Shown here one piece after another: positions 1,020 to 46,262 of a stretch of DNA of 51,174 bases (position 1 is its first letter; each line of letters starts with the position of its first letter). The notes beneath the pieces are model-generated. The model saw only the letters and a list, made by a program, of their open reading frames with translations. It was not told where the DNA came from and did no database searches. Source of the DNA: a virus (taxonomy: Duplodnaviria > Caudoviricetes); IMG/VR virus record IMGVR_UViG_3300050132_000130, positions 1 to 51,174 of that record; one strand, 5' to 3'. Made by a program: the position numbers and the translations under genes.

Positions 1020-1313
1020 ATGACCGATGAACAAACCCAAGCGACCCTACAAGACACCCCCGATCCTGCGCTGATAAACGAGCAGGTGCGCGCGCAGGCT
1101 ATGGCGAACATGGCAGGGCAGACTCTCGGGCAGATCACGCAGGCCGCGATGCAGTTGCTCACGACGGCGACCTGTAATAACCCGCGCCTGTGCCTGGCTG
1201 TGGCGAACGAATTGTCTCTGATATACGCGGAGGCGTTGCGGCGCGGTCTGATGGTTAATCAGGCGACCGAGAAGGCCGACGAGGCGCCAGCACCGGAGGC
1301 CGCAAATGGCTGA
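1020..1313 (+). CDS. Hypothetical protein
   Basis: AAGGAG RBS upstream; overlaps the start of the next gene. Confidence 0.7.
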   Translation: MTDEQTQATLQDTPDPALINEQVRAQAMANMAGQTLGQITQAAMQLLTTATCNNPRLCLAVANELSLIYAEALRRGLMVNQATEKADEAPAPEAANG

Positions 1314-1554
1314 GGTCGGGGGCGTATCTGGTGAACGGCTGATGTCGTTTATCAAAAGGATTGAAAAACTGAATGAAGATAGGGACGCCGTTACGTCTGA
1401 TTTGACCGAGGTGTACGCGGAAAGCAAGTCGGTAGGATTCGACGTTAAAATCCTGCGCCAGATCGTGAATCTGCGTAAACAAGAGGTTGAGAAGCGGCGC
1501 GAGGAGTCCGAATTATTAGAACTCTACGCGAGTGCAATCGGCCTCGAAACCTAA
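1306..1554 (+). CDS. gapR: GapR-like nucleoid-associated protein (DUF2312/UPF0335)
   Basis: RLMSFIKRIEKLNEDR...EVYAESKSVGFDVKILRQIVNLRK...LELYASAIGL matches the family signature; GGAGG RBS. Confidence 0.9.
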   Translation: MAEVGGVSGERLMSFIKRIEKLNEDRDAVTSDLTEVYAESKSVGFDVKILRQIVNLRKQEVEKRREESELLELYASAIGLET

Positions 1555-1819: not shown

Positions 1820-4800
1820 CTACGCCCCGTGAAAAGCCACTTTATCCTGCTCAAAAACGTGTCGTGAATTGGCACGGCATTTTGTTCATCTTCTAAACCC
1901 TGTATTTCTGTTTGCTCGTCTTGCAAAGCCTTCACCAAAACCGCCGTAAGCTGCATATACCGCACACCCGCAACAGAACCGTCGGGATGCAATCCGATTA
2001 AGCGCGGGTCAATATCGCCAACTTCTTCCGCGATAAGGCCAACCTGTCTACCAAGATGTTCAGGGTTAAATTCAGGCTTCAAGTCATATGACACCGGACG
2101 CATTGCTAGAACTTCGGACAATCCATCGTCAAGGTTCTCGATGTTCATTTTTACTTTCAACGTGGACGAGAGACAGGCTAGCGTCGTGTCAACATTTACA
2201 AGCCCCGTTGAGGTCGTCCAACAAAGAGTGCCCGTCGTGGCTGCGCTTGACGATGCCAGACCCGGCAAGTTCAAAGCCCCATAAAGTGTCGTTGCGGTCG
2301 TCGTCCCACTCAACCCTATTTCCGTGGTGTTGCTGCCAAGACCCACACCACCGATTGCGATTGAACCTGTGTCCCCTGCGGCATTCGTCGTCGTCGTTGC
2401 GCTTGTGCCGATTAGGATATTGTTGGAGCCTGTGTTTAGCGTTGTACTCGCCACCCCTGTGCCGATAACAGTGTTAGAAGATCCCGACCAAGATGCTGTT
2501 GAGCATGAGCCCCGCCCGACACAAGTATTACTCGCGGCTGCACCAGTTATGCCGCTTAAAGCGGTTCTTCCTAACGCGGTATTGCCACTGCCAGTTAACT
2601 GTGCCCCATTAAAAGTCCCAGAATTAGCACCGAAAAAAGTATTTGTACTGCCAGAACTAATCGCCGCCCCGGCTCCTTGCCCGACACATGTATCTTCCGC
2701 GCCAGAGGTAACATTCTTACATGCGGCATTACCAAATGCAGTATCCGTTATCGCCGCTGATGTCATAGTGGCAGACAAAGCATTGTACCCGAAGGCCGTA
2801 GCGTTATAGGCTGCTTTTGCACTCATCCCAGATAGTGCCGACGAGCCTGCTGCAACACTTGCGCCGAAAGTGGTGTCATAGGGTGAGAATAATACAGCGG
2901 GTTGTCCTGCGATATTATATCCGTATTGAGTATTTTGATACCCCGTCTTCGTTGTACTGTATTGCCCTATATAGGGCAAAAGCACTGGCGTGATCGCTGC
3001 CGCAAAGTCCTCGTATCCCACCATATTGGGGTGAACATTATCGCCCGCACTTTCACCTAAAGTAACCATTTGACTATAGGACACAAGCCGAGCCCACTCA
3101 TCTACAATAGGCAACCCGGACACATTGGCTGAATTGTTGTTTGCTGCCGCGAGAGAATACATAGCAGAAATAATAGCTGCCTGTACGGCTTGTGATGCCG
3201 ACCCTATGGCTGACGGTGCAGGAGTAAGGATAATAACATCTGCATTTGCAGAATTTTCCGCAGCCGTAATCAGGGTTTGCATATTTGTCGTGTACGCAGA
3301 CGGAGTAATTCCGTTTAGCCAATCATTTATCCCGAGATCAAACACAAACGCGCTGCACCCAAGAGAGTTATTTTTTATAATAGAAACTGCGTCCCATCCA
3401 GCCGTTCCGTTAGTGGCTGACCAATCACCAGATTTAGAACCCGACCACCCAAGATTAACCATGTGCACGGAACTTTTAGTACTATCATATGTTGAAAAAC
3501 CTATGATGAACACGCTACCTGAAACCCAATTAAGATTTACGGTGTTGGCACCAAGAGAACCCGTGATTGTAACAGACCCTATACCTGACGTTCCTGCTGT
3601 GGCCTGCGAAGTGTTCGAACCGCCGTTTAGATTATAATTAAATGAACCGAGGCCGCTATCAATTCTGTAATACACAATAAACGTATCCACGGGGGTAGGA
3701 GCCGTGTACGCCAAGCTTGCTGTAGTAGATGTTGCTGTAAACATGGCTCCGCCTATTGTGGCTTGCGGAGATAGCGTTTCAGACCACCCAGAACCGACCG
3801 TCAGAACATTTGTAAAGCCGCTATGTTTTGTTCCCGGTCCGTCGCCTATGAAATTATTGACATCTGCCATAACGCCTGCATTTCTAAATGCCTGCATAAC
3901 TTGTCCGGGCATACTGTTATAGTAAATTGGAGACGTTGATCCTTGTCCGGTTGTCGTGCTGTCGCCAATCCAGCAAATATTCGTGTTACCAGTTCCCGTA
4001 GGGTTAGCAAGCACGCTATTTACAGCCGCTTTGAGGTGTGGGAGTGACAACGCGTAATTTGTGGTGATGTTGTTTATAGCTCCCGATCCACTCGTCGCCC
4101 CCGTCCCCCCGTTCGCCAAGGGGAGTGTGCCGGTGACGCCAGTGGTCAGGGGCAATCCGGTCAAATTTGTCGCCACGCCAGAGTTCGGCGTACCAAGTAG
4201 CGGCGTCGTCATCGAGCATGATGTAGTCAGACATACCGAGCCGCTACCCGACGAACCTGTCCATGTTGGAGCGGTTGCCGCGCTGCCGCTTCCTGTGCTG
4301 GACAAGAATTTCGGGGTTGTCGTCGTGTTTCCTGCAAGCCGCGTAGGTGCGCCGGATGCTGCGCCGTACACCATGTCGCCGAGCGTCGTCGCCACGGTTT
4401 CGTAAAATGATGTGAAGGCGTTCGCAACCGATGTTTGACCAGTGCCGCCGTTTGCCCCAACGAGCGTACCCGCAAGCGTTATCGCGCCGGACGTAGCCGA
4501 ATTTGGAGTAAGGCCAGTCGTCCCGCCGTTAAATGTCGTGACGCCAGTTGAAGCCGTGAGATACGCCGCTCCATTGCTGAGTTGATTATTATTCGTGATC
4601 GGCGTCACGGTGCAATTGATGATCGTGCCGTTCGTCAAGCACCAATCGCCGTTCGTTAACGTGTTGGCGTGAAGCTCCGTTACGTTCAACGTAAGACTGC
4701 CCGCCGTGTTGGTAGCGTCCCCCGTGTGCGCTGGCTCCTGCGCGGCTTGTAGGGTGCCGCTGGCATAACTTGAAAGATTGATTGCCGTTCCGTTCCATGT

Positions 4801-5361: not shown

Positions 5362-5775
5362 TTAATTCAACTCCCAAACGCCGACGATCGACGTTACAAT
5401 CCATTGTGTTGCCGATATTAACGTGACTGTAACAAAATTTCCAACAGTGTTCGATGAAATAGAGCCGCCGGACGAGGATGAGTCGGCGCCGTTCGTGATT
5501 GTTACTCCGGGTGGCGCGACAAGAGACAGTGTTTCAGCGGCGACAACCAAAGCAGAGATTGCCACTGGATAAAACGTCGAGGGCGCGGCAGGCAGTGTGA
5601 GATCAACTTCCGCTATCGCACCTGTGTTGGTAAACATAGTTCCGCTCTGGGTAAGAGATAACCCCGCCGATGCTGTCAGCGGCACTACGCCAGAGAATGG
5701 CAACCCAGACGCCCCCTGCGGGCCGCCTGATGCAACAACAAATGTGACTGAATTTCCGATGCCTGAAAAACTCAT
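5362..5775 (-). CDS. Hypothetical virion-associated beta-rich protein
   Basis: Likely start MSFSGIG at 5775 (ATGA overlap); lies between tail accessory genes. Confidence 0.65.
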   Translation of the reverse strand: MSFSGIGNSVTFVVASGGPQGASGLPFSGVVPLTASAGLSLTQSGTMFTNTGAIAEVDLTLPAAPSTFYPVAISALVVAAETLSLVAPPGVTITNGADSSSSGGSISSNTVGNFVTVTLISATQWIVTSIVGVWELN

Positions 5776-6146
5776 GGAACCACCGTGATGGGTTTTGTTA
5801 TTGTGATTGCACCCGTTATGTATTGGTTTTCGACAGGTGGAGATGTCTGGTATTCGATCCAAACATCGTATGGATATGTGCCGATTGACATGCCTGCTGT
5901 GGTTGTGCTGCTGATATTGATAGAGAACTGTCCGGCGGGTGCATCAGTCACCGTAATGCCGCCGTTTCCAGTTGAGAGCAGCAACGGCGTTGGTGTGGCA
6001 ATCGTCATTTTAATCGAACATCCGGTTAAATTCACCGGAGTCGAGTTAATCGCCATCGTCAACGCCAAAGAAACGTCGTCACCCTGCACGAATGCGGCAT
6101 TTAACTGCTGTGCCCCTGCCGAGCCTGTGACTGAAACTTGGAGCAT
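5772..6146 (-). CDS. BppU-like tail-fibre attachment/baseplate upper protein
   Basis: QGDD-SL-L...PVNLTG...GQFSINI...GTYPYDV pattern typical of this Ig-like family. Confidence 0.6.
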   Translation of the reverse strand: MLQVSVTGSAGAQQLNAAFVQGDDVSLALTMAINSTPVNLTGCSIKMTIATPTPLLLSTGNGGITVTDAPAGQFSINISSTTTAGMSIGTYPYDVWIEYQTSPPVENQYITGAITITKPITVVP

Positions 6147-6148
6147 GA

Positions 6149-6184
6149 ATACCACATATAGTTGCGAGTCGCAGGATATATCAA
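6149..6184 (-). promoter_or_regulatory. Promoter candidate with overlapping NrdR-like box and CGAGTCG site
   Basis: TTGATA(6184-6179)-17 nt-CTATAT(6161-6156); ataCcAcATaTaGtt at 6149-6163; tgcgagtcgca palindrome in the spacer. Confidence 0.5.
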
Positions 6185-6555: not shown

Positions 6556-7260
6556 TCAGAACAGTTCAATCTGTTTGGCGGCGGATTCGATGCGGCGCAG
6601 TCCGGCCTCGAACCATTTCTCTGATTTTTCGATGCCGATGTACCGACGACCGGCCTTGATCGCCGCGACGCCGGATGAGAACACGCCAGCGAACGGATCA
6701 CATACGAGTTCGCCGGTCTGAGTGCTGTTTTCGATGTAGGATTGGAATAGGGCGACGGGTTTCTGCGTGGGATGACCTGAATCGTCATCGACCTGGGGGC
6801 ATCGAATGAGTTGTTTTGAGCCGCAATCGTTGATATATTTTGCCTTACCCTTGAAGAAAAACCCCGTAAATTCTAAATTTTTCATGAACCAGCGGTTCGG
6901 TGTTGCCGTCACCTTATCCCACACGAGCAGGTTATGAAATTTGAATCCCGCCACCTCAGCTGCGTTGAGCATGGGCTGGACATTGCGGTTATTTGCCATG
7001 ATGTAAGCATGTCCCGCCGGGAGAGCCGCCGACAATAACGGCATGAAATCCGGCCAGTCAATATCGCAATCGACGATCGACCCAGAATTGTCGTATGTCC
7101 CGCGCGCGAAACAGCCGCCCATCTCTCCGGTTGTATTGCCGCCGGATTCTAGTTTATATGGGGGGTCACAGCATATCATATCGACCGTGCCAATCGTCGG
7201 CAGGATTTCCATACTGTCGCCGCAGATCAGAGTCGCGCCGCCGATTATTTCCGTTCTCAT
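6556..7260 (-). CDS. DNA N6-adenine/N4-cytosine methyltransferase, beta class
   Basis: DPPY catalytic motif precedes HPTQKP and the DPFAG SAM-binding motif. Confidence 0.9.
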   Translation of the reverse strand: MRTEIIGGATLICGDSMEILPTIGTVDMICCDPPYKLESGGNTTGEMGGCFARGTYDNSGSIVDCDIDWPDFMPLLSAALPAGHAYIMANNRNVQPMLNAAEVAGFKFHNLLVWDKVTATPNRWFMKNLEFTGFFFKGKAKYINDCGSKQLIRCPQVDDDSGHPTQKPVALFQSYIENSTQTGELVCDPFAGVFSSGVAAIKAGRRYIGIEKSEKWFEAGLRRIESAAKQIELF

Positions 7261-15354: not shown

Positions 15355-15960
15355 TTAAGTCGCAAACATTGGATAGCTGTGCGCGGGAGCGTACTGGTGA
15401 ATCACATATTCGAGTTCCGACGTGCCAATCAGCGTGAACAGCGCGTCATTTGCAGCCGAGAAATTCGTCTCAAAATACTGGACGCTGAGATTCGGAATCG
15501 TCACCGTCCAGCCGAACGCCCACGCTTGTCCGTATAAAATCCCGTTTGCCACCCCTACGTTCGCGCAAAACGGCGTATATTCCGTGATCGTCGCGCCCGT
15601 AAACCCCAAGGATTCGATAACCGACAGGAAATATGGCACCGACTGGCCGCCGTCGTTGGCGAATTTCTGTAAAACCTGCGCCTGCCGTTGCGGAATCGTC
15701 TGGACACCCGCGAACGGATTCGGCAAGCCGAGCGTCGCCTCCCATTCGGGGAGCAACTGCACAGGGTTTGACGGGAACGCATCGGCCAATAAATCCTGCA
15801 ATGATTGAGTTTGCCGTTCATACGTCGGCGCGAGACAGGCGATCGTTTGCGCGATAACCGAGTCCACATCACGCGGCCAGACCTTACCCGTTGGCATCAG
15901 CGAGAGGTATGCTGCGGTGAAATCAGCGGTGGAGAATAGGGGGGCTAGGGCTTGGGTCAT
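15355..15960 (-). CDS. Baseplate protein, Mu gp48/YmfQ (DUF2313)
   Basis: L-P-G-WP, LLPEWEATLGLP, GGQS-YF, LE...PAH motifs. Confidence 0.85.
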   Translation of the reverse strand: MTQALAPLFSTADFTAAYLSLMPTGKVWPRDVDSVIAQTIACLAPTYERQTQSLQDLLADAFPSNPVQLLPEWEATLGLPNPFAGVQTIPQRQAQVLQKFANDGGQSVPYFLSVIESLGFTGATITEYTPFCANVGVANGILYGQAWAFGWTVTIPNLSVQYFETNFSAANDALFTLIGTSELEYVIHQYAPAHSYPMFAT

Positions 15961-16694
15961 TTCCAGATTTTCCCGCTTCGGATAGACTTGACCGTTCCCT
16001 CACAAATACCGTATTCGGCTGCGATGATTCGTTTCTTTCTTTTATCAAGGCGAATGGCGTCAGCCTGAAGTCTGGTAAGTTTTGCCATTGGGTGCCCTTC
16101 CCCGCGCAGGTGCTGCCTAGAAATGACCCAACCTGCTTTTTGCTCAGGAGTCATCGGTTTCTGTGGTTTTCCGCGATGAGCAGCAGCTATTTTTTCCTTT
16201 GTTTCAGCAGAATGTGGTTGGTTCTTTCTCCCCAACAAAGACTGACGAATTTTCTCTCTTTGTTCTGGTGACTTTGGACTTGGCTTCCCCATATTTCCCA
16301 GAGATATTTTTCTCCTATGTTCTTCAGTAAGGGGGCGGCGCTTCTTGCCTTTCTGTGCAGCAGATATTTTCGCACGGTGTTCGGGGGAAAGTGTATTTCC
16401 AGGAGTTCCCTCGCCACCTTCTGTTGCGTTCACAACCTGAGAGCCATTCTTTGATCGCAACAACTTGATCCAAAACCTTTCTCTTTCTGCCCAATTATCT
16501 CCTGCCGTCTCCAAGAGGTACATCTTCGGCTTCATGCCGGAAGAAAGAAGGCTCCTAATCCATTTACCACGATAAGACATATCTCCGCGCTTAGCGTCAC
16601 GCACATGGATATACAAACGATTGGCCATCGGTCGTATCGTTTTACCAACATACCTACCCCTAGAAGTTCTGGGATCGATAAGAACATAGATCAT
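15957..16694 (-). CDS. Free-standing GIY-YIG homing endonuclease with NUMOD3-type repeats
   Basis: IYVLIDP...YVGKT, ERFWI, N-TEGGEG, repeated (S/T)-E-(R/K)-KI units; sits between baseplate genes. Confidence 0.85.
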   Translation of the reverse strand: MIYVLIDPRTSRGRYVGKTIRPMANRLYIHVRDAKRGDMSYRGKWIRSLLSSGMKPKMYLLETAGDNWAERERFWIKLLRSKNGSQVVNATEGGEGTPGNTLSPEHRAKISAAQKGKKRRPLTEEHRRKISLGNMGKPSPKSPEQREKIRQSLLGRKNQPHSAETKEKIAAAHRGKPQKPMTPEQKAGWVISRQHLRGEGHPMAKLTRLQADAIRLDKRKKRIIAAEYGICEGTVKSIRSGKIWK

Positions 16695-16699
16695 TGTTG

Positions 16700-17836
16700 T
16701 CACGCCCATGAAATGACTCCAAGCTGACTCAACCTGCCCGTCGTCGCCACAACATCAGCCGACGGAACGGTAATAATATAATCCTGAATCCCCGGTATCG
16801 CATCGATCGCAGCCTCAAACGCGGCGAATGGTATCGTGCCACCTGTCTGGCCGTTCGGGAGCAACACGCCGCCGACAGTACCGAGCGACAGGAACGTGGC
16901 AGTCAGCGCCGCCGAGACCGAGGCTTTCATCGCCGTCGTGTTCGGGCTCAGGTTTGTGATAGTAAACGGCACAAGCGACTGCACCGGCGCGCACGAAATA
17001 ACCAGCGCCGTCACAGGCCGCTTCAAGAATATCGCGTTCGCCACCAATAACTGATCGCCGGTCGCAGCCGCCGTCCGTGTTTCCAGTGTCGCGCCGCCGT
17101 TCGTGCCCTGCGGGAACCCCCCATACGTCGACTCGGTATTATCAAACATCGTGTAAACATTAACCGTTCCGATGCCGGAACCATTCGGCAAACACCACGC
17201 CCGCGTCACGCCCGGAACCGCCAATGCCCATCCGATGTAATCTGCAACCGCGCCGCCTTGCGGGGGCTGCGCGTACCGTTGCAGCATTTCGGTACGGAAT
17301 GACGGAATGGTCTGAATATCCGCGCCGCCCGTGAACGCCGTCGAAACGGTGCCGGTCGCGTTAATACCGGGAATCGCCACGGAGAACGTCATCGTCGCGC
17401 CGAGCAGGGTGTTCCCCGCCGCGCCTGCGATCTGCGCCGTCGCGGGGACGACCACCGAACCACCGGAAACAACGGCATCGGCGGTCGAGGTGAACAGCGC
17501 GCCGTCTGATCGGGTCAGGACGGTGCCGATCGGGCAGTCGGTCGTGTTGGTGCCCGTGAACGTCGCGGAACCGCTGGCGGCAGTCGCTTGGCCTTGGAAC
17601 ACGCCTTTAAGCGCCGCCCAGCCCTGCAAATACTCGTCGGTCGCCGTGAACGGAACCGCCTGCATGGCGATCCAGTCCTCATACCCGTAATGCAGGTTTG
17701 CCAACCCGGCCTGTATCGACGCGATGACGTTAAGGTTCGATCGGCGCAAGAAACCATCGGCACCCGCGAGATTTGTCGTTACATCGCCATAAGCCTGTTG
17801 GCGTAACGCGGTGAGGGTGGGGCGTGAAAATGGCAT
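16700..17836 (-). CDS. Baseplate J-like wedge protein (Mu gp47)
   Basis: MPFSRPTL, GAAGN, GGAD...PPQGGA-DY-WA-VPGVTRAW motifs. Confidence 0.9.
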   Translation of the reverse strand: MPFSRPTLTALRQQAYGDVTTNLAGADGFLRRSNLNVIASIQAGLANLHYGYEDWIAMQAVPFTATDEYLQGWAALKGVFQGQATAASGSATFTGTNTTDCPIGTVLTRSDGALFTSTADAVVSGGSVVVPATAQIAGAAGNTLLGATMTFSVAIPGINATGTVSTAFTGGADIQTIPSFRTEMLQRYAQPPQGGAVADYIGWALAVPGVTRAWCLPNGSGIGTVNVYTMFDNTESTYGGFPQGTNGGATLETRTAAATGDQLLVANAIFLKRPVTALVISCAPVQSLVPFTITNLSPNTTAMKASVSAALTATFLSLGTVGGVLLPNGQTGGTIPFAAFEAAIDAIPGIQDYIITVPSADVVATTGRLSQLGVISWA

Positions 17837-23545: not shown

Positions 23546-25027
23546 TTATTTCAAGCGGAACTGCGCCAACAGCGCGAAAATATCAAGTTGATCGATCAGT
23601 ATGCCATCCCAGAGAACGTCAACCCGGTTCGGGTTCGTGGAGTTCTGCTGGACAATCAGGCCAGCGATAAACGCCGCGCTGTCTTGAACCTGGCCGTTGT
23701 ATTCCATCTCCTGATACTGCGCGATCAGGAACGCCTTAATCGTGCTCGGCGTGACGATATTCGAGCCATCGGCAAACTTCGTGCCGTCAGCCGCCAGTTT
23801 GAATCGCGCGAAGTTCGATGACACGGCGATATTCAACTGCGTCAGGATCGATGCGAGGTTATACATCGTGTTGATTTGCAGATACGAGTTATCGGCCTGA
23901 CCAAATTTATTCGTCTGGTACGTCGTGATCGTACCCTCCAACATAACCGTGCCGGCATCGTTGACAGTGAACGTCGATATGCCGTCAAACAGCAACGTAT
24001 TTCGCTCGGTCGGAGGGAAACGATACATCGACTTAGGCGGCAACATCGTGCTAAGCGCCAAAGTATGCAGCGGGGTCGCGGGGTCAGTGCGTAAAGACAC
24101 AGCGGCAGTCGCGGCGAAATCAGCGGCGATTTTCCATTCTGTCGTCGGGCTTTGGTAGAAACCAAGGATCGATGTATGCTGGTCGTTCATCGCGTTGCCA
24201 GCAGTCACCAAAGATCCGAACGTGCCGCGCAGCGCACACCATGCGTGGCCATAAATCTGCTGATCCCAACTCCATGTCCCGGTCACATCGTTCAGATACG
24301 CCGTGATCGCGGCCAATGAAGTTGAATCGGTATATGGCGAGATTATGAAATCGAAACGCTTGGTGAGGTTCCCAAGGGCAGTCGTCAGAACAGGGTTCGC
24401 TGTGCCGCCAGACATCGCAACGATCGTGAATGTCAGACCTGCCGGGGTGAACTCGCCGCCAGATGTACCACGATAATTAACCTGAATGTCGATGTCGTTC
24501 GCGGTCAGGCCCTTGTGGTTAGACGTGAAGGTGATAACACCTGCCGAGTTCGCGGCGGTTACAGGCAGATTTGGGGTCGCGGCACAGGCCGCAACGATCG
24601 CGGCAGCAACCAGGGTCACAGTCGAGAGTGCGGTCGTGATCGCAGTTTGAACGAGGACACCGCCGATATACAGGTTCAAGGTGCCGTTCGCGGTAGGGAC
24701 AGCCGTGACAGTCAGGGTTCCTGTCGCAACAGAACCGGCACCATTATCGGCAACGGGCAGCAGCCACAATTCGCCAAACGGATCAGCCGCGCGATACGCC
24801 GCAACCATGTCGGCCAGCATCGAACCAGCGCCGCCCTGCGTGATCGCATCAAGCGGGCCTGCGGAAATGATCGGAGTGTTGGCCACAGCAGCGCCGGTCG
24901 AGAGCATCTGGCCGATAATCAGCGCGCGCGATGTGACCTGCCCAGTGTTCGCCTTGGAATTATTGACCTCGGCGTAGAACAGGGGGAGACGGAGATTGCT
25001 CGGAATGTTGGAAAAAGGAATGGACAC
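23546..25027 (-). CDS. Tail sheath protein (Mu gpL family)
   Basis: F-IPSNLRLPLFYAE-NS-A, GAGSML, ITTYQ-N-G-D-SYL, NPNRVDV...QFRL. Confidence 0.95.
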   Translation of the reverse strand: MSIPFSNIPSNLRLPLFYAEVNNSKANTGQVTSRALIIGQMLSTGAAVANTPIISAGPLDAITQGGAGSMLADMVAAYRAADPFGELWLLPVADNGAGSVATGTLTVTAVPTANGTLNLYIGGVLVQTAITTALSTVTLVAAAIVAACAATPNLPVTAANSAGVITFTSNHKGLTANDIDIQVNYRGTSGGEFTPAGLTFTIVAMSGGTANPVLTTALGNLTKRFDFIISPYTDSTSLAAITAYLNDVTGTWSWDQQIYGHAWCALRGTFGSLVTAGNAMNDQHTSILGFYQSPTTEWKIAADFAATAAVSLRTDPATPLHTLALSTMLPPKSMYRFPPTERNTLLFDGISTFTVNDAGTVMLEGTITTYQTNKFGQADNSYLQINTMYNLASILTQLNIAVSSNFARFKLAADGTKFADGSNIVTPSTIKAFLIAQYQEMEYNGQVQDSAAFIAGLIVQQNSTNPNRVDVLWDGILIDQLDIFALLAQFRLK

Positions 25028-25233
25028 TATTCATTCTCCTTGGACAGGGAAACGGGCGCGGCTTTCGCGGCAGGCTTGAAACTCGCGTCGGGCGGCAGAA
25101 CAATCTCCGCGTCACCGTCCCGTAACCGGCGCTGCCAGAACGGAGAATCGACGACGTTGCAGCCCTCATCGGGAATCAGCAATTTCGTCAAATGATCCCG
25201 TATTTTCAGGCCGCGTGTGGCTCGGATGAACAT
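25027..25233 (-). CDS. DUF2635 family (Mu gp38-like) protein
   Basis: G-IRD...P-EG-V-FW-RRLRDGD; directly upstream of sheath. Confidence 0.85.
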   Translation of the reverse strand: MFIRATRGLKIRDHLTKLLIPDEGCNVVDSPFWQRRLRDGDAEIVLPPDASFKPAAKAAPVSLSKENE

Positions 25234-25263
25234 GGAGGCTCCACGAATCAGAAATTTCTGTGA

Positions 25264-25309
25264 CCACTATATATGGTAGAAATGGACACGTCAAACACTA
25301 CATCAGGTG
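25264..25309 (-). promoter_or_regulatory. Tail-operon sigma70 promoter overlapped by tandem NrdR-like boxes
   Basis: TTGACG(25294-25289)-17 nt-TATAGT(25271-25266); boxes ccaCtAtATaTgGta (25264) and acaCtAcATcagGtg (25295), 31 bp apart. Confidence 0.7.
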
Positions 25310-25917
25310 TTGTTCGTGTTTAGATTGTCTGACTCAACGTAGCCTTCGAGACGCCCATCAGGCCCTGTCGTGCGTGGCGCCGTCGTCGCATCGTTCGGGA
25401 ACAGCGGATCAGTATAAGTCCCGCTCGGGTCGAATATGTTCTGCAAGTCCACGCTGACCGTGATCGTCGAGAGCGGCAGGGCTTGCGGCTGATAGACCTC
25501 GAAGTAAGACATGTGAATTTCGAGGATCGCGCTGGCGATAAAAAATTCAGAGTCGGCATCGGTAATGTTCACACAATCGACCGCAGGAAACTCCTGCAAC
25601 AACGGCGTGATCGTGGGGTCTGTGAGAATCACCTGCTGGATTTGCCCGACGAGGGTATCCAGTTTCGCGTTCGCGGCGGACATTGTTACATCGACCACGC
25701 GCACATCCAGCCTTAATACGAAAGTGGTATTAAAATTGGCGACGGTTTTCGCGCCGGAGATTTTCGATTCTCTGCTCCAATTTACCAAAATCGCCGGGCT
25801 TGTCTTTTCGTTCGTCGGCCACGCATAAAGGAACACGTTGCTGCCAGCCAGCGTTCCGCCGTTTAAGAGCGCCGCGATGGATAGGTCACGAAGCTGGGCG
25901 CGGTTGGTTTGGGTCAT
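25303..25917 (-). CDS. Putative tail terminator/completion protein
   Basis: Between head-tail joining gene and sheath; T-AG-NVF...WP...PAI-V pattern. Confidence 0.6.
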   Translation of the reverse strand: MTQTNRAQLRDLSIAALLNGGTLAGSNVFLYAWPTNEKTSPAILVNWSRESKISGAKTVANFNTTFVLRLDVRVVDVTMSAANAKLDTLVGQIQQVILTDPTITPLLQEFPAVDCVNITDADSEFFIASAILEIHMSYFEVYQPQALPLSTITVSVDLQNIFDPSGTYTDPLFPNDATTAPRTTGPDGRLEGYVESDNLNTNNT

Positions 25918-26267
25918 TCGAGTAATGTCGCCGAGAGGTGAAGCAATAATGATCCGTGTCCGTCATCCAAGGCACTCCGGACGAGGTATGTGCGGCCCCT
26001 GACAACAATCTGGTCCCCCTGCAACAGCGTCCAGTTCGTAGGCGGGTTCGGAAAATCGCTGCAACGGCATCCAAAAACTGGCACATGCACCACGACTTCC
26101 ATTCCGTCTTTGATTTTTATCTCGGCTGATACGGGGTCGAATATGCCGCTCAGATTAAACGGTGTACCGTTCTGGGGCGTATAGACGGGGATCGGGTAGC
26201 CCTGATTGACTTCCCCAAAAGCAGCGTCGCAGGCGGCGAGGACGGTTAAATCGAAACTTAACGTCAT
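25914..26267 (-). CDS. Head-tail joining protein (lambda gpFII-like)
   Basis: FGE...Y-P...GIFD...QGD-I-V-G-Y-V...DG-G...L-L. Confidence 0.7.
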   Translation of the reverse strand: MTLSFDLTVLAACDAAFGEVNQGYPIPVYTPQNGTPFNLSGIFDPVSAEIKIKDGMEVVVHVPVFGCRCSDFPNPPTNWTLLQGDQIVVRGRTYLVRSALDDGHGSLLLHLSATLLE

Positions 26268-26282
26268 CCTCGCCCCCGTGAA

Positions 26283-26561
26283 TTAACGACTCCCGCGCCG
26301 GATTTGCTGGTCGGTCTGTTCTGTGACTTGGACATCTCCGCCAGGCACATAATCAGCAACGGACGCAGCTTCAATATCAGCCGCAGACAGTTTCTTGGCG
26401 TGTGGGTCAACGATGAACTTCTGTTTAACCAGACGTTCAATTTCCGACTCATCCACCGTGACTTTTTCGCCCGGCAACTTAATCGTGTCAGGCTTGCCAT
26501 TTAACCCATTCACATGAATGGAATGACCGCGCGCGACAGTAACTTCAACTGGCTTACCCAT
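26283..26561 (-). CDS. Hypothetical protein following major capsid (possible packaging accessory)
   Basis: GAGGAG RBS; PGE-V...E-ERL motif; position equivalent to lambda FI. Confidence 0.6.
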   Translation of the reverse strand: MGKPVEVTVARGHSIHVNGLNGKPDTIKLPGEKVTVDESEIERLVKQKFIVDPHAKKLSAADIEAASVADYVPGGDVQVTEQTDQQIRRGSR

Positions 26562-26589
26562 ATCGGTATTCTCCTCGGCTAGTTAATCG

Positions 26590-27678
26590 TTAGACATCGA
26601 CGCCGGTGCAAACAACCGCCGACAGGCAGGCATTCACACGAGCGGGGATCGGCAACGGGCTGCTCTGCATGAGCAGGAACCGCTGTGCGGGATCAGGCTG
26701 CGTCCAGACTTTCGGAGCATACTGCATCGTCGCATAGCTGAAATCGGGGTCGAGAATGGTCGCAAACGCGCGAACACCCATCAACTGCGGCGAGGTCAGC
26801 AAGATCGTGCCGTCGGGGATCATGCGGTATTCTGTTTCCAGAGTGCCGCCTTCCGTGCCCATATCGACGTACCAATCGTTGTAAACCCACAGGCGGTAGT
26901 TGCCCCAGACACCCTTCAAGATCGCGCCGTGCTTCGCTTCGGACGCCATCTGGACTTGGTTCTTATTCGGGAAACCAAACTTCGAGGTGTCATAAACGAC
27001 GGCCTTGGCGACTTCAGGATCGTTCATGAAGTAACGGAAGGGGGTCGGCGTGAAGATGATGTCCTGGACGGTGGCGCCGGAATACTTCAACACGAGGTTC
27101 TGCCAAGTGTCAATATTCGCGGCGGGCGTTGCGGTCGAACCGGCGCCGTAATCCCAGACGTTCGTCGAGGTCAGGGTGATGGTCAGAGCCGCCGCGCGAC
27201 CGAAATCGATGGTCACGGCGGGGAAACCTTCGCCCTTGATGGTGATCGTGCCGTTAATCAGTTCTTGGCAGGCCATCCATTCCATGCGGCGCTGGATCAT
27301 ATCAATCTGATCGGCCATCTCGAATTGGAGGTTCTGCATCATGCGTTCGACTGGGTTCTTGTCGCCACCGATACGCTCGCCAATCATGCGGCGTACAGGC
27401 TTACGCAGGTCGGGCGCACGCTTGTCTTTAATATAGGGCGGCTTGAACGTGTTCGTCTGAATGCGACGTTGTTCGACCAGCTTGCCCTCGACCATAGGCG
27501 AAACGAACGGTGCGAGGCGGCGTTTACCGACATCGACATCGATCGACACAAATTCCGTTTCCGACAGTTCTTGCAAAGGGAAGAACGTGTCGAGGATGAA
27601 AGTCTGTGCGACTTTCAAGTTCGGCACCACAGCGATCAGGGCGTTGGTGTCGAAAATCGATGGAAAACTGTATGCCAT
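26590..27678 (-). CDS. Major capsid protein (lambda gpE family)
   Basis: F-DTFFP, RRLAPFVSP, FKPPYIK-K, RRMEWMA, QSSPLP motifs. Confidence 0.95.
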   Translation of the reverse strand: MAYSFPSIFDTNALIAVVPNLKVAQTFILDTFFPLQELSETEFVSIDVDVGKRRLAPFVSPMVEGKLVEQRRIQTNTFKPPYIKDKRAPDLRKPVRRMIGERIGGDKNPVERMMQNLQFEMADQIDMIQRRMEWMACQELINGTITIKGEGFPAVTIDFGRAAALTITLTSTNVWDYGAGSTATPAANIDTWQNLVLKYSGATVQDIIFTPTPFRYFMNDPEVAKAVVYDTSKFGFPNKNQVQMASEAKHGAILKGVWGNYRLWVYNDWYVDMGTEGGTLETEYRMIPDGTILLTSPQLMGVRAFATILDPDFSYATMQYAPKVWTQPDPAQRFLLMQSSPLPIPARVNACLSAVVCTGVDV

Positions 27679-27696
27679 GTTTTGATTCCCTTATGG

Positions 27697-28392
27697 TTAG
27701 TTCGGATCGGACGCGACGTTGGCGCTCTTCAGGAAGATGTTGAAAGGACGCAGCAGCGGAGCAAGAGCAGCCACCGTGTAACCAGAGTCGAACGTGATGG
27801 CGTTCAGATTGAACTCGCCGGTCAGATAGACACCAGCCGTTACCGCACCCGCGCTCGGGTCACATTGGTCGGCCAAGATTGCCGAAGGAACCTGCGAACC
27901 ATCAGTCGCCGTGGCAACCGACGGGATGTAGTTTCCGGTACCGGCAGCAACCGTGAACAGGGCTTGGTCGCCAGCAACCATCGCGGTGCCACCGGCAGTC
28001 ATCGTGAAGCCGATTTCATTGGCGAACGCTGCACTCAGCGTACCCTGGCCGACTTCGTTGCCGAGCGGATCGAATACGTTGAACGTGGTCGCGGTCAGGA
28101 ACTTCGCAATATAAACGCCAACCTTCGCATTTGCGGCGACAGTCACGGCGCTGCACGTTGCGTTGCCCGTGTCGCCAGCTTTCAGGGCGAACGTAGCGGC
28201 CCCGATTGTGGACTGACCCAGAACAGTGCCGCGTGGCAATGGGGTGACAGTGTTAACCGTTGCACCAGAGGTGACGGTCACGTTCGCGGTAACTCGCGGA
28301 TATACGCCAGCGATCAGTTGATCGGGCAAATACGAGTTATCGAAATTCATCGGTTGCTGAGGAACGTCGCCGTTTGGAGTGATGGTAACCAT
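27697..28392 (-). CDS. Head decoration protein (lambda gpD family) with inserted domain
   Basis: RGTVLG...ATDGSQ-P-AIL...Y-GEFN. Confidence 0.85.
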   Translation of the reverse strand: MVTITPNGDVPQQPMNFDNSYLPDQLIAGVYPRVTANVTVTSGATVNTVTPLPRGTVLGQSTIGAATFALKAGDTGNATCSAVTVAANAKVGVYIAKFLTATTFNVFDPLGNEVGQGTLSAAFANEIGFTMTAGGTAMVAGDQALFTVAAGTGNYIPSVATATDGSQVPSAILADQCDPSAGAVTAGVYLTGEFNLNAITFDSGYTVAALAPLLRPFNIFLKSANVASDPN

Positions 28393-28405
28393 ATTGTTTT
28401 ACCCC

Positions 28406-29101
28406 TTAGTTCAGTTTGGTGAGAGGAGCTTCGCCTTCCAGCGAACGCATGGAATTCACGATCATCAGAGCCTGTTGTTCGGACGACAGTTTAGCGAATG
28501 CTTCTTCGGAAATGCCTTCAGCTTCGACCTTCGCCACAGGCAACACATCGCTGCCGACGTTCGCGCTGGCTACTTTCGCCATGCGTTCGTCGATGCTTGC
28601 GCGGCGCGGTGCAACGGCGGCTGCGGTCGGAATGGTTTCCATGATCGCAATCGCCGCATCAGCCGACAAATCCGTGTGGAATGCGAACTGGCAAGCGGTT
28701 TCAATACGACCGGCTGCCGCATCGCTGCGGAAAATACGGGCGCAACGGACGCGCTCTTCGAGGCGGGCTGCTTCCATGTGGGGGGCGAGGTCGTAGGAGG
28801 AGGCAGAGGCTTTTTTGGCCTTTTTGCTCTTTTTATCTTCACGATCCTCGTCGTCCTGTTCGTCTTTTTCTTCTTTATCTTCGCGCTTCTCGTCATCTTC
28901 GCCTTCTTCGTCCTCGTCCTTTTCGGACTCCATCTTTTTGGACTTGGCTTTTTTGCTCTTCTTGCCGTCCAACTCGTCGTCCTTCGGTTCCGGCTTTTCG
29001 TCGGCGCCCTTTACAGGTTTCGCGTCGATTCCGCCGTCAACTTCCTTCGCTGCGGCTGCTTGAACGGACGATAGGAGATGTGCATACGAGGTTTTTGACA
29101 T
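28406..29101 (-). CDS. Putative capsid scaffolding protein
   Basis: Highly charged low-complexity segment then ER-RC-I; between protease and decoration genes. Confidence 0.6.
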   Translation of the reverse strand: MSKTSYAHLLSSVQAAAAKEVDGGIDAKPVKGADEKPEPKDDELDGKKSKKAKSKKMESEKDEDEEGEDDEKREDKEEKDEQDDEDREDKKSKKAKKASASSYDLAPHMEAARLEERVRCARIFRSDAAAGRIETACQFAFHTDLSADAAIAIMETIPTAAAVAPRRASIDERMAKVASANVGSDVLPVAKVEAEGISEEAFAKLSSEQQALMIVNSMRSLEGEAPLTKLN

Positions 29102-29158
29102 TTATGGCTCCAGAAGTTGATTCGAGAGAATCAGTAAATTTCTCTATCATACTGAAGC

Positions 29159-29204
29159 ATACCATATATGGTTGTCAACTGTGTTTTGAACACAAGCTAT
29201 TGTG
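29159..29204 (-). promoter_or_regulatory. Tandem NrdR-like boxes upstream of scaffold/capsid genes
   Basis: ataCcAtATaTgGtt (29159) and acaCaAgcTaTtGtg (29190), 31 bp apart, flanking a - strand TTGACA (29178-29173); -10 spacing not canonical. Confidence 0.65.
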
Positions 29205-29206
29205 TG

Positions 29207-30076
29207 TCAGCGAATCGAGTTCACTAAAGTCTCGAAAGCCTTCTCCGGCGACAAAACGCTGTCGGCCAGACCGACATCAACGCCCTTTTGCCCCATGAAC
29301 GTGCTGGCGTTCATGGCGCGCACAGCCTTTATCGACAACCCACGATTCCGCGCGACAGTCCTGCAAAAAATTTCACCCAAGCGATTCACTTCTTCCTGCA
29401 TCCTGCCCAGAGCAGAATCAGTCATCGGCACGGCAGGATTCCCGTCGGCCTTGTTTTTTCCGTAAGTGATGAGATGAATCTTGACGCCCTCGTTCTCAAG
29501 TTTCTGAGAATAGTCAGTCGCCATTGCGATTATGCCTATGCTGCCAACGCCGCCAGAAACGGGAACGGTTATCACATCTGCCGCCGACGCTATCGCATAC
29601 GCCGCAGAAAACGCGACTTCGCTAAGAATAGCCATCATCGGCTTCTTCCCGCGCGCGCGGTAAATATCGTCAACCAAATCAAAACAACCAGAGCATTCTC
29701 CGCCGGGCGAAGACGTATCAAAAACAACAGCCTTCACGGTTGGGTCATTCATCGCCGCCGTAAATGCAGCGCGGATCGAATTATATCCGCTCATTCCGCT
29801 CATCGGGTTTATCGAGCCGAGTTTATGGACGAGGGTTCCTATGACGGGGATAATGCCAATCGAGTGTTCGACAATATATCCTTTGTCTTTTTGGGATGAT
29901 TCCAGCGCGCCGCCAACCTTCGCTTGGAAATCATAGGGCAGTTGCTCCAAGTTAAACCCGTCATGCGACACGCCGAAACGACCGCCAAGGGCAGAGATGA
30001 TAACCTCGGCCTTTGATGGGTGGAGCATAAGCGGGACATCGAAAATTTGCTGTGCGAGATGAGGGAGGTGGTTCAT
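29207..30076 (-). CDS. Prohead protease, S49 family (lambda gpC-like)
   Basis: SPGG, AFSAAYAIASAA, GSIG, VARNRG, GLAD motifs. Confidence 0.92.
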   Translation of the reverse strand: MNHLPHLAQQIFDVPLMLHPSKAEVIISALGGRFGVSHDGFNLEQLPYDFQAKVGGALESSQKDKGYIVEHSIGIIPVIGTLVHKLGSINPMSGMSGYNSIRAAFTAAMNDPTVKAVVFDTSSPGGECSGCFDLVDDIYRARGKKPMMAILSEVAFSAAYAIASAADVITVPVSGGVGSIGIIAMATDYSQKLENEGVKIHLITYGKNKADGNPAVPMTDSALGRMQEEVNRLGEIFCRTVARNRGLSIKAVRAMNASTFMGQKGVDVGLADSVLSPEKAFETLVNSIR

Positions 30077-39859: not shown

Positions 39860-40591
39860 TTATATGCCCCGACAGTTATCGGCGAGTCGTTGCCATTTAG
39901 GATCGTCGCTTGAATGCTTGAGTCTATTACAATCAAGGCAACATATAACAATGTTATCTTGCGTATGTAATCCGCCAGAAACAAGCGGCTTAACGTGATC
40001 CATTGACTTGTTTGCAGGTGTAAGAGGCTTGCGACAATAAGGGCAGTCTTGCGATGAATCAAAAAGATTCTGGAGCCATTGCTTTGTAACACTTCCATCG
40101 CTTGCACGTTTTGCAGCTAGTTGATTCGTGCTTAGGTGTTTTTCATTATCCACAAAATATCGCCTTGATTTTTCTTTGAATGTGTTGCGCCTATATCTAT
40201 CCCTGTACCGCGCGGCTTCTTTCTGTCTAAAATATTTTGCTTCTTCTTCCGTTAGCGTTGCATACCAGGCCTTTGTACCTTGTGCAGGTTTTGCCGGATG
40301 GTCTAGGCGATAGAGTCGCTTGGCTTCCTTCCTTGCGGCTTGGTCAATAATCCGTTGCGCCTTGTGTTCGACTGATAGGATAGATTGAATCGCCTTAGGG
40401 ATATATTCCTTGTTTGTTTCTCCTCTCCTGCGCCGCCCGTCTGCCCTTGCTTGTGGCGAATGTGCAGCAATAAAAGACGGCGAATTCCTTACACAATGCG
40501 TGCAGGATGCCGTTAATCCATCTTTTGATGCCTTACGTTTAGAAAAGGCGGATTCTTCCTTCTCTATTAGGCAGGTTGTGCAAGTTTTCAT
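39860..40591 (-). CDS. HNH endonuclease with N-terminal zinc-ribbon
   Basis: CPYC...DHVKPLVSGG-H-DN-CC-DCN-K; N-terminal CTTC...DGL...CTHC; likely start MKTCTTC. Confidence 0.88.
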   Translation of the reverse strand: MKTCTTCLIEKEESAFSKRKASKDGLTASCTHCVRNSPSFIAAHSPQARADGRRRRGETNKEYIPKAIQSILSVEHKAQRIIDQAARKEAKRLYRLDHPAKPAQGTKAWYATLTEEEAKYFRQKEAARYRDRYRRNTFKEKSRRYFVDNEKHLSTNQLAAKRASDGSVTKQWLQNLFDSSQDCPYCRKPLTPANKSMDHVKPLVSGGLHTQDNIVICCLDCNRLKHSSDDPKWQRLADNCRGI

Positions 40592-40726
40592 GTTGGAATA
40601 TCCTTTGTTGTTTGTTAAATATGCCCTTATAATAGGCACAAAATACCCCCATAAGCAATAAAACAATAAACTTGACATTATAAAATAGCGTTTATTGCTA
40701 TCTTTGCGCTTAGACAAAATTGTCCA

Positions 40727-40755
40727 TTGACAAAGCAATTGATAAGGCGCAAATT
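40727..40755 (+). promoter_or_regulatory. Candidate early promoter
   Basis: TTGACA(40727-40732)-17 nt-CAAATT upstream of the + strand small-gene cluster; a second TTGACA at 40672. Confidence 0.4.
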
Positions 40756-42245: not shown

Positions 42246-42929
42246 ATGTCTATCATCAACACACGAGTCGAATGCCTTAAAGCCGTTTTCCCATTCGTTT
42301 CAAAAGAGGAAACGCGCTATTACCTGAACGGCGTTTACGCCGAGTCCGGCCTGTTAGTCGCCACTGACGGGCATAGGCTTGCAGCGATTAAACCTGCCCT
42401 AATGGAGTCGCAAGGGGCGGGATTCATAATCCCTAGTGCGACGATTAAACAGGTCTTGTCTATCAAGGCCGGGAAACGCGAAGAATTATTCTCTGAATTC
42501 AATACGGAAACGGGAGTCGCCACGGTTTACACGTTAGACCGCGATAAGAATCGCGATTCAAAAGGCGCGTTTCCGTTTAAACCTATCGACGGCACGTTTC
42601 CAGAATGGCGGCGCGTGATTCCATCGGCGGAAAATTTTAATACCGCCAACCATAAGGATCGGAATCAAAACACGGGCGCGGAATTCAATTCCGCATATCT
42701 TGCCACTTTTCAGGCATTCGGGGATAAGGTAAACGTGTTTTTGAATAATGATCCCGGCGCGCCTTCACTTGTGACGGCAAAAACGGAATTGTTTGAGGCT
42801 GTAGGGGTGATTATGCCAATGCGTAGCTATGAATTGGCCGCCGTATTGCCTGAATGGATCAAGGTGACACCTACCCCCCCGGCGGCATTGGATTCAGAAA
42901 CGGTAAAGGAATCTGAATCGGTTATTTAA
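42246..42929 (+). CDS. Truncated DNA polymerase III beta-clamp-like protein
   Basis: SKEETRYYLNGVY, VATDGHRL, IDGTFPEWRRVIP, FNSAYL, VIMPMR correspond to DnaN central and C-terminal domains; 227 aa. Confidence 0.85.
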   Translation: MSIINTRVECLKAVFPFVSKEETRYYLNGVYAESGLLVATDGHRLAAIKPALMESQGAGFIIPSATIKQVLSIKAGKREELFSEFNTETGVATVYTLDRDKNRDSKGAFPFKPIDGTFPEWRRVIPSAENFNTANHKDRNQNTGAEFNSAYLATFQAFGDKVNVFLNNDPGAPSLVTAKTELFEAVGVIMPMRSYELAAVLPEWIKVTPTPPAALDSETVKESESVI

Positions 42930-45836: not shown

Positions 45837-46262
45837 ATGTCGGCAGCCATAACCCAATCAATACTGACGTGGCAACAGCGGGCGGAAATGTACCAGCGCC
45901 GATGTGAGGCGCTCGAACAGCAATTATTCGAGATGAAATTAGTTATCGCTGAACCGAAACAATTTGATGCGACTTTTATTAATGCGTTTGGACTAACAAA
46001 ACAGGAAGACTTGGCGCTCGATTATATTATGCGACACGATTATCCGACGAGAGAAAGAATATATCACGCATGTTCACAGGATGGCCGCATTAATGCGGGG
46101 TCGTCTCCTAAGATCGTCGATGTTCTGGTCAGCAGAATACGGAATAAATTGAAGAAACACGGCATCAGGATCGAGACACAATGGGGAGTCGGTTATCGTA
46201 TGAGCAACGAGAGTAAGGCGCTGGTGAGGCGCGTGGCGGCAGCGTATCAGGGGCAGGTGTAG
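45837..46262 (+). CDS. CtrA/OmpR-type winged-helix DNA-binding protein lacking a receiver domain
   Basis: GLTKQE...PKIVDVLVSRIRNKL...IETQWGVGY Trans_reg_C signature preceded by a short coiled coil. Confidence 0.85.
   Translation: MSAAITQSILTWQQRAEMYQRRCEALEQQLFEMKLVIAEPKQFDATFINAFGLTKQEDLALDYIMRHDYPTRERIYHACSQDGRINAGSSPKIVDVLVSRIRNKLKKHGIRIETQWGVGYRMSNESKALVRRVAAAYQGQV

Follow-up and report, generated by a model that had tools for sequence, protein, structure and literature searches.

The uncultured peat phage analyzed here (IMG/VR record IMGVR_UViG_3300050132_000130) carries two operators of the type recognized by the bacterial repressor NrdR, one over a predicted promoter of its capsid genes and one over a predicted promoter of its tail genes. 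The window, by which we mean the whole stretch of DNA that was analyzed, is the complete record of 51,174 bp with direct terminal repeats. Each operator is a pair of 16-bp boxes in an intergenic gap, both pairs score like sites at bacterial nrd promoters, and pairs of the same type recur in other viral contigs. On balance, we favor the explanation that the virion genes are derepressed through host NrdR in a replication-coupled manner.

NrdR-type box pairs in two intergenic gaps

The four box strings that the sequence-only reading had placed at 25264, 25295, 29159 and 29190, two to a gap and 31 bp apart, are present exactly so. The distance is counted from start to start and each box is 16 bp long, and therefore the linker is 15 bp in both pairs. 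The elements of the two gaps are as follows.

25234-25302: gap 1, between the connector genes and the DUF2635/sheath genes
25295-25310, minus strand: pair 1 distal box, ACACCTGATGTAGTGT as transcribed, abutting the -35 hexamer and overlapping the stop codon of the gene at 25303-25917
25266-25294, minus strand: predicted promoter P1, TTGACG-17-TATAGT, from a consensus scan (10/12 matches)
25264-25279, minus strand: pair 1 proximal box, CTACCATATATAGTGG, covering the -10 hexamer TATAGT
25245-25259, minus strand: third shared block of gap 1, AGAAATTTCTGATTC, starting 6 nt past the P1 -10 hexamer
29102-29206: gap 2, between the protease gene and the scaffold-like gene
29190-29205, minus strand: pair 2 distal box, ACACAATAGCTTGTGT, starting one base past the protease stop codon
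29159-29174, minus strand: pair 2 proximal box, CAACCATATATGGTAT
29149-29178, minus strand: predicted promoter P2, TTGACA-18-CAGTAT, read by eye
29128-29143, minus strand: third shared block of gap 2, AGAAATTTACTGATTC, 5 nt past the CAGTAT hexamer

In the direction of transcription, gap 1 reads ACACCTGATGTAGTGT, TTGACG, 9 nt and CTACCATATATAGTGG, and gap 2 reads ACACAATAGCTTGTGT, a 15-nt linker ending in TTGAC, and CAACCATATATGGTAT. Both pairs therefore have one layout, an ACAC-N8-GTGT box in the distal position and a CCATATAT box in the proximal position, and this arrangement is also found at many nrd promoters of the set used for the weight matrix described below.

Rules for such sites come from a 2026 mutational study (PMC13584703). 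According to the portion of it available to us, two boxes are required and a single box does not bind; C4 and G13, with 8 bp between them, are essential; A6 and T11 matter, and E. coli NrdR tolerates A6T; the central AT can be lost provided that A/T makes up 63% or more of the bases between C4 and G13; and the linker is 15-16 bp (or 26-27). Two boxes with a 15-bp linker are present in each gap, C4 and G13 are present in 4/4 boxes, and A6 and T11 are both present in 3/4, the pair 1 distal box having an A/T swap on one side. This box has T at position 6 and 5/8 A/T between C4 and G13, at the stated lower limit, and scores 13.4 bits. The pair 1 proximal box has 6/6 core letters and 7/8 A/T and, at 16.1 bits, is the top single box in the window. 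In pair 2, the distal box (C4, A6, T11 and G13; 6/8 A/T; 14.1 bits) has AG in the middle, as does box 2 of E. coli nrdAB, and the proximal box (12.8 bits) has 6/6 core letters and 6/8 A/T. We found neither pairs with a 26-27 bp linker nor third boxes near the pairs.

The operators of bacterial nrd operons (E. coli nrdAB, nrdHIEF and nrdDG; S. coelicolor nrdAB and nrdRJ) are built in the same way: two partially palindromic 16-bp boxes with C4, A6, A8, T9, T11 and G13, an A+T-rich center, a linker of 15-16 bp, and overlap with the promoter. The scores of the phage pairs also lie within the range of real sites. Unlike the bacterial operators, which lie at the promoters of ribonucleotide reductase (RNR) operons, those of the phage are followed by scaffold/capsid and sheath/tail genes, which they would control in a phage without an nrd gene, and there are two of them inside one long co-directional gene array. 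The non-nrd location sets the finding apart; it concerns which genes would belong to the regulon and leaves the type of site unaffected. By their sequence, both pairs are NrdR operators.

Two simple scans do not separate these sites from chance. The original Rodionov-Gelfand consensus, in the form in which it is reportedly written, was used as a 16-mer query; with up to 3 mismatches it matched only at 29190 (1 match vs. 0.23 expected), and the other three boxes have 4-5 mismatches to it by hand count. A rule scan (C4, G13, at least 5/6 core letters, at least 5/8 A/T, linker 15-16) found 3 pairs in the window vs. 0.70 expected, and 14.7% of 300 shuffles gave 2 or more. The earlier description of all four boxes as matches to the NrdR consensus holds by the published rules and by the nrd matrix, but within 3 mismatches of the 16-mer it holds for the box at 29190 only.

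A weight matrix was decisive for the sites being real. Genes for the RNR large subunit (PF02867) were identified in 5 named genomes and in two sets of 61 sampled genomes; 69 upstream regions (37,635 nt) served as input, and rule-scan pairs were present in 24 of them. A symmetric matrix, with the consensus ACACAATATATTGTGT, was iterated from 25 bacterial nrd-promoter sites, none of them from phage, and its scores over the nrd upstream regions are bimodal, with 29/69 at 16 bits or more. Pair 1 scores 29.5 bits and pair 2 scores 26.9 bits, the third best pair in the window reaches 6.8 bits, and four of the five top single boxes genome-wide are the four boxes described here. Among the 29 nrd-promoter sites (median 30.3 bits), the two pairs stand at the 45th and the 31st percentile. 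In 500 dinucleotide shuffles, the best pair had a mean of 7.2 bits (standard deviation 3.3) and reached 16 bits in 1.8% and 20 bits in 0.6% of cases. The scores are thus far above background; the matrix behind them is mostly gammaproteobacterial and not the alphaproteobacterial one that the sequence-only reading had proposed.

We also scored 240 related phage or prophage loci that align by the tail sheath gene and were taken from IMG/VR, metagenomes and species genomes, all at 69% sheath identity or less. These loci (2,907,489 nt) contain no pair of 14 bits or more at spacings of 31, 32, 42 or 43, which means that accidental resemblance to NrdR sites is not a property of promoters in such phages. 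That the pairs are functionless, A+T-rich promoter sequence with a chance resemblance to NrdR boxes is accordingly hard to believe. Part of the score of the proximal boxes does come from a TATA sequence like that of a -10, the crude rule scan gave no significant result, and distant relatives show no conservation; on the other side stand two pairs of at least 26 bits in 51 kb, when a single pair of at least 20 bits arises in 0.6% of shuffles, the lack of any pair in 2.9 Mb of promoter-rich related phage DNA, and the distal ACAC-N8-GTGT boxes, which are not promoter-like. Partnerless NrdR-like boxes of 12.5-13.1 bits lie at 878-893, 3016-3031 and 6149-6164, with no partner at the tested spacings, and the last is intergenic, over a -10-like sequence upstream of the gene at 5772-6155.

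The sequence-only reading had the pair of gap 1 straddle a TTGACG-17-TATAGT promoter. The promoter is found there, on the minus strand from 25294 to 25266, but the boxes overlap it rather than straddle it, the distal box abutting the -35 and the proximal box covering the -10. P2, as read by eye, has a perfect TTGACA, a -10 hexamer with 3/6 matches and a spacing of 18 bp; here the spacer is taken up by the proximal box, which the -35, at the end of the linker, overlaps by two bases. Alternatively, P2 could be read as TCAAAA-17-TATGGT, which is laid out like P1. On either reading, core elements of the promoter would lie beneath a bound NrdR tetramer.

When aligned, the two gaps share three blocks, namely the two boxes, distal and proximal, and AGAAATTT(A)CTGATTC. 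This last block has 2 matches in the window, both in the two gaps (0.00 expected). It lies 5-6 nt after the -10 hexamers and is therefore the predicted start of both transcripts, given P2 as read by eye. Measured from this block, pair 2 lies 11 bp, or one helical turn, further upstream than pair 1. A GANTC site is also present in the block, as TGATTCG or TGATTCT, and we take these forms to fit the extended motif of GcrA-dependent methylated promoters in Alphaproteobacteria, and the leaders of two relatives (L001 and L004) hold GANTC as well. Genome-wide GANTC is not enriched (235 vs. 234 expected), and therefore its presence in the block is only a lead. The leader RNAs fold no better than shuffled sequences (z -1.3 and -0.6).

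Relatives, variants and other viral contigs

An IMG/VR search found no close relatives by capsid protein. The closer relatives by sheath (P0002-P0015, 70-83% identity) are known as proteins only, and the closest related DNA has 65-69% sheath identity (L001-L004, L081 and L082). The sheath gap of L001-L004 contains a TTGTAA-17-TAGAGT or TAGGAT promoter (6270-6310 in L001), and the protease-scaffold gap of L001 and L004 contains TTGACA-17-TAGATT (2310-2400 in L001; 2300-2385 in L004). The inspected relatives thus have promoters at both gaps, and internal promoters at these places are a lineage trait. No NrdR boxes were found at the L001 and L004 promoters in the same two gaps, and therefore, in this one phage, the operators were placed on two promoters that already existed. 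In most of the more distant relatives, the sheath module has no gap in front of it.

Close variants of the phage are present in peat and permafrost sequencing runs, and four runs were compared with the window. A permafrost contig (run X7) matches 29108-29143, differs wholly over the next 15 nt, and then reads ATACCATATCTGGTG, which is the pair 2 proximal box at the same offset with one change inside and one at the edge. This is one case, and it hints that both the box and the third block are under constraint. Two further variant contigs span the operators. In a peat contig (run X14), 28952-29107 (156 nt) is replaced by 164 unlike letters, after which the contig rejoins at 29108 and crosses pair 2; the replaced stretch is the leader downstream of the shared block together with the start of the scaffold-like gene. 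The whole promoter architecture, used as a pattern, gave 0 matches in IMG/VR.

The operator by itself is more widely distributed. The pattern ACAC-N8-GTGT, 18-19 nt, CNATATATNG occurs in at least 103 stretches in IMG/VR, compared with 28 for a complemented control pattern. Eighty loci were taken from these matches (L310-L389); 67 of them score 26 bits or more, and the remaining 13 (20 bits or less) look like chance. Dropping 6 loci with identical site and flanks left 61, many of them still related and many from one data set. The first two open reading frames (ORFs) leading away from each site, 147 in all, were compared with Pfam, and 40 of them with PHROGs. Packaging or virion genes follow 21/61 sites (terminase small or large subunit, 10; portal or connector, 7; scaffold plus capsid, 2; adaptor, 1; tail fiber, 1), and at 18 of these 21 the first ORF starts within 160 nt. 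Antirepressor, Cro/CI-type, integrase or excisionase genes adjoin 15/61 sites, an nrd gene (NrdD) follows 1/61, and 24/61 have no assigned neighbor. The ORF calling was crude and no neighborhood null model was used, and therefore the gene-context result is descriptive. In examples read by eye, the boxes are wrapped around TTGACA and TATAAT-like hexamers.

These contigs suggest, tentatively, that NrdR operators are a widespread phage device: in phages unrelated to one another they may sit on the promoter that heads a packaging, head or tail operon, and in some on an antirepressor or an early promoter. Contigs of low G+C with SPP1-type portals, a phi29-like podovirus, and the present, probably alphaproteobacterial myovirus would be examples. 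If this is true, drained dATP would be a general early-to-late or commit-to-lysis signal, and a large NrdR regulon would exist on mobile elements outside reductase genes. A search for cultured relatives of three of the IMG/VR examples gave no DNA match; no pair was found in the 6.4 kb examined of Clostridium phage Maintenon, which by its portal is the nearest cultured relative; and a search of five IMG/VR records for extra operators found only the known pair in three and no strict-pattern match in two.

Proposed control by host NrdR and its alternatives

The two gaps divide the virion genes of one minus-strand array, and the genes next to them are listed below.

29207-30076, minus strand: S49-type head maturation protease (phrog_53, E 4e-100), the last gene upstream of pair 2
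28406-29101, minus strand: scaffold-like gene, labeled by position, served by P2
27697-28392, minus strand: head decoration gene (phrog_49), served by P2
26590-27678, minus strand: major capsid protein (phrog_29, E 8e-79), served by P2
down to 25303, minus strand: three head-completion or connector genes, served by P2 and ending the array 25303-29101
25303-25917, minus strand: the gene adjoining gap 1 on its upstream side
25027-25233, minus strand: small DUF2635 gene (Pfam), the first gene served by P1
23546-25027, minus strand: tail sheath (phrog_165, E 2.8e-165), served by P1

Pfam matches in the P2-served array include HDPD and Phage_attach, and tube, baseplate, fiber and lysis genes follow the sheath on the same strand.

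Each gap would hold an internal promoter of the sigma-70 type that raises expression of the virion genes needed in greatest amount, P2 for the scaffold, decoration and capsid genes and P1 for the sheath, the tube and the rest of the tail. Over each promoter would lie a complete operator for host NrdR, its two 16-bp boxes spaced by three helical turns. In the early phase of infection, the NrdR tetramer of the host, carrying dATP and ATP, would occupy the -35/-10 region and keep both promoters silent. Phage DNA replication would then draw down dATP, so that NrdR leaves the DNA, and would multiply the operators beyond the NrdR supply. Loss of dATP and operator titration would act in the same direction, so that the virion genes would be expressed only after replication has begun. 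What we infer from the sites and their surroundings is the binding of NrdR, the transcription starts, the direction and timing of regulation, and the host.

Published work bears on NrdR and on these steps. The available text of 10.1101/2024.05.27.596032 reports DNA binding by NrdR with dATP plus ATP and not with ATP alone, and that of PMC13584703 reports that NrdR proteins bind heterologous operators and that NrdR is present in 77% of bacterial genomes. Operons of the NrdR regulon are strongly induced in lytic infection by the pneumococcal phage SpSL1, according to the part of PMC6755750 available to us, and this is the physiology that derepression needs. The sequence-only reading had the late genes as a whole gated by host NrdR. 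What remains of this is NrdR-type boxes on two virion-gene promoters, but not all late genes are included: the terminase, portal and S49 protease genes lie upstream of pair 2 and so are not behind any NrdR pair.

The same sites could instead act as a decoy, soaking up NrdR as phage genomes multiply, derepressing the host nrd operons and raising the supply of deoxynucleotides (dNTPs) for a phage that lacks a reductase, with the promoter position secondary. The observation of the sequence-only reading that no nrd gene was seen was borne out, there being no ATP-cone in the phage, no match to an RNR family among the 78 ORFs scanned with PHROGs, and no reductase among its nine ORFs of 400 aa or more. 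Operator copy number would rise with replication, and NrdR-regulon genes rise in lytic infection (PMC6755750, available text). A pure decoy could lie anywhere, however, and both pairs lie exactly on -35/-10 elements in the same layout; they occupy the only two places where the inspected relatives (L001-L004) have internal promoters, and the sites in the IMG/VR sample also directly precede the first genes of operons. As the main role of the sites a decoy is therefore unlikely, and the two effects are not exclusive, so that titration may be a side effect compatible with gating as well as a rival to it.

A different protein might read the palindromes, their likeness to NrdR boxes being convergent. 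The phage itself encodes two candidates, and host factors are others.

45837-46262, plus strand: OmpR/PhoB-type winged-helix protein of 141 aa (Pfam Trans_reg_C, E 2e-8), with no receiver domain
1306-1554, plus strand: GapR-like DNA-binding (nucleoid) protein (Pfam PF10073, E 4.7e-26)

The first could be, judged by its domain, a transcription regulator of the phage, and with it the earlier statement that no recognizable late activator was seen is not quite right. Also in favor of a reader other than NrdR are a third conserved block beside the boxes, which is not an NrdR feature, and the absence of the sites from relatives. Against this, the four boxes fit a matrix made from nrd promoters only, at the canonical spacing, as well as real sites do, and the consensus recurs in unrelated viral contigs spanning 30-58% G+C, a recurrence for which a regulator private to one phage would not account. 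Direct repeats are the usual target of OmpR-type domains, and we know of no such specific site for GapR. We regard another reader as improbable.

Derepression through host NrdR thus stays the preferred explanation, and several observations weigh against it. The pairs are conserved in 0/240 of the related loci (sheath identity 69% or less), so that the conservation which the sequence-only reading had proposed to look for is absent from all of them, the X7 variant giving one hint of it. The nrd sites behind the matrix are mostly gammaproteobacterial, from the class sampled around a Yersinia genome, which may not be the clade of the host. The -10 of P2 is weak, and for this reason the consensus promoter scan does not list P2. 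NrdR does not explain the third shared motif, and the phage has the winged-helix protein; other regulators may therefore act at the gaps. An RNA-library contig (X15, 25221-25380) spans gap 1; it fits read-through from upstream or DNA carry-over, and therefore the promoters are not the sole possible source of transcripts. No contig of two RNA runs covers 28825-29307, RNA contigs are present over the capsid genes, and contigs cannot show transcript starts.

The remaining points concern the host. GapR-family proteins are present in 46/61 of the alphaproteobacterial genomes sampled (45/60 without the unpublished genome G105) and, among 14 controls, only in Caulobacter, and the GapR gene makes an alphaproteobacterial host plausible. 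NrdR (TIGR00244) is above the cut-off in 52/61 of the same genomes (51/60 without G105). This clue to the host is indirect, and the best bacterial sheath homologue comes from Rhodanobacter (64%). A pair of at least 20 bits is found at 1/30 of the best-scoring alphaproteobacterial RNR loci (L280-L309) and at 23/30 of those in the other sampled class. In two alphaproteobacterial genomes, canonical pairs do adjoin RNR genes (G081:C1:2348637 and G090:C2:799856); the pattern search that turned them up covered 151 genomes of Alphaproteobacteria and produced 8 matches vs. 6 for the control. The alphaproteobacterial RNR genes beside canonical pairs are shorter, about 620-680 aa.

Comparison with known systems and other features of the window

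Control of phage genes by a host repressor is known from the LexA boxes on phage and prophage promoters. There, as proposed here, the operator of a host stress or metabolic repressor lies on a phage promoter, and a host signal is read without a sensor of the phage's own. Unlike in the LexA-box phages, the signal here would be the dATP/ATP state and not DNA damage, and the targets would be virion genes and not the lysis-lysogeny switch. In phage T4, late transcription is coupled to replication via the sliding clamp, a co-activator of its own and a sigma factor of its own. The late virion genes of the present phage would likewise fire only during phage DNA replication, but the link to replication would be the precursor pool together with a host repressor, and the promoters would be ordinary ones of the sigma-70 type.

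Published work on NrdR, in the portions available to us, describes the repressor as specific for reductase genes. We found no report of NrdR boxes at phage structural, packaging or switch genes in the full-text literature (subscription journals not covered), including the available text of PMC12051234, PMC6755750, PMC4667477, PMC11754733 and PMC13670838. The last of these describes an E. coli BL21 strain that is resistant to phage and has transposon-borne mutations in several genes including nrdR. If the proposed control is correct, a phage without a late sigma factor, though with a winged-helix protein, would couple virion synthesis to replication via 47 bp of DNA, and the NrdR regulon would extend to mobile elements. 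Drugs or mutations that affect the dNTP pool, such as hydroxyurea or loss of nrdR, would then be predicted to shift phage timing and burst.

By gene content (PHROG and Pfam scans of the ORFs in the window) the phage is a myovirus. Nearly all of its genes are on the minus strand, from 40738 down to 1586, in the order replication genes, terminase, portal, S49 protease, scaffold-like gene, head decoration and major capsid protein, followed by the connector genes, the DUF2635 gene, tail sheath, tube, baseplate, fibers and lysis. The PHROG and Pfam scans recognized no DNA polymerase gene in the phage, and no tRNA or Rfam family was found in the window. The ORF at 42246-42929 (plus strand) weakly matches the beta clamp of DNA polymerase III, in its central domain, and RusA-like PHROGs. 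An HNH/endonuclease VII-like gene (39860-40738) stands at the head of the long minus-strand array, a homing-endonuclease-like gene (15957-16709) lies between baseplate genes, and an N6_N4 methylase is encoded at 6556-7260.

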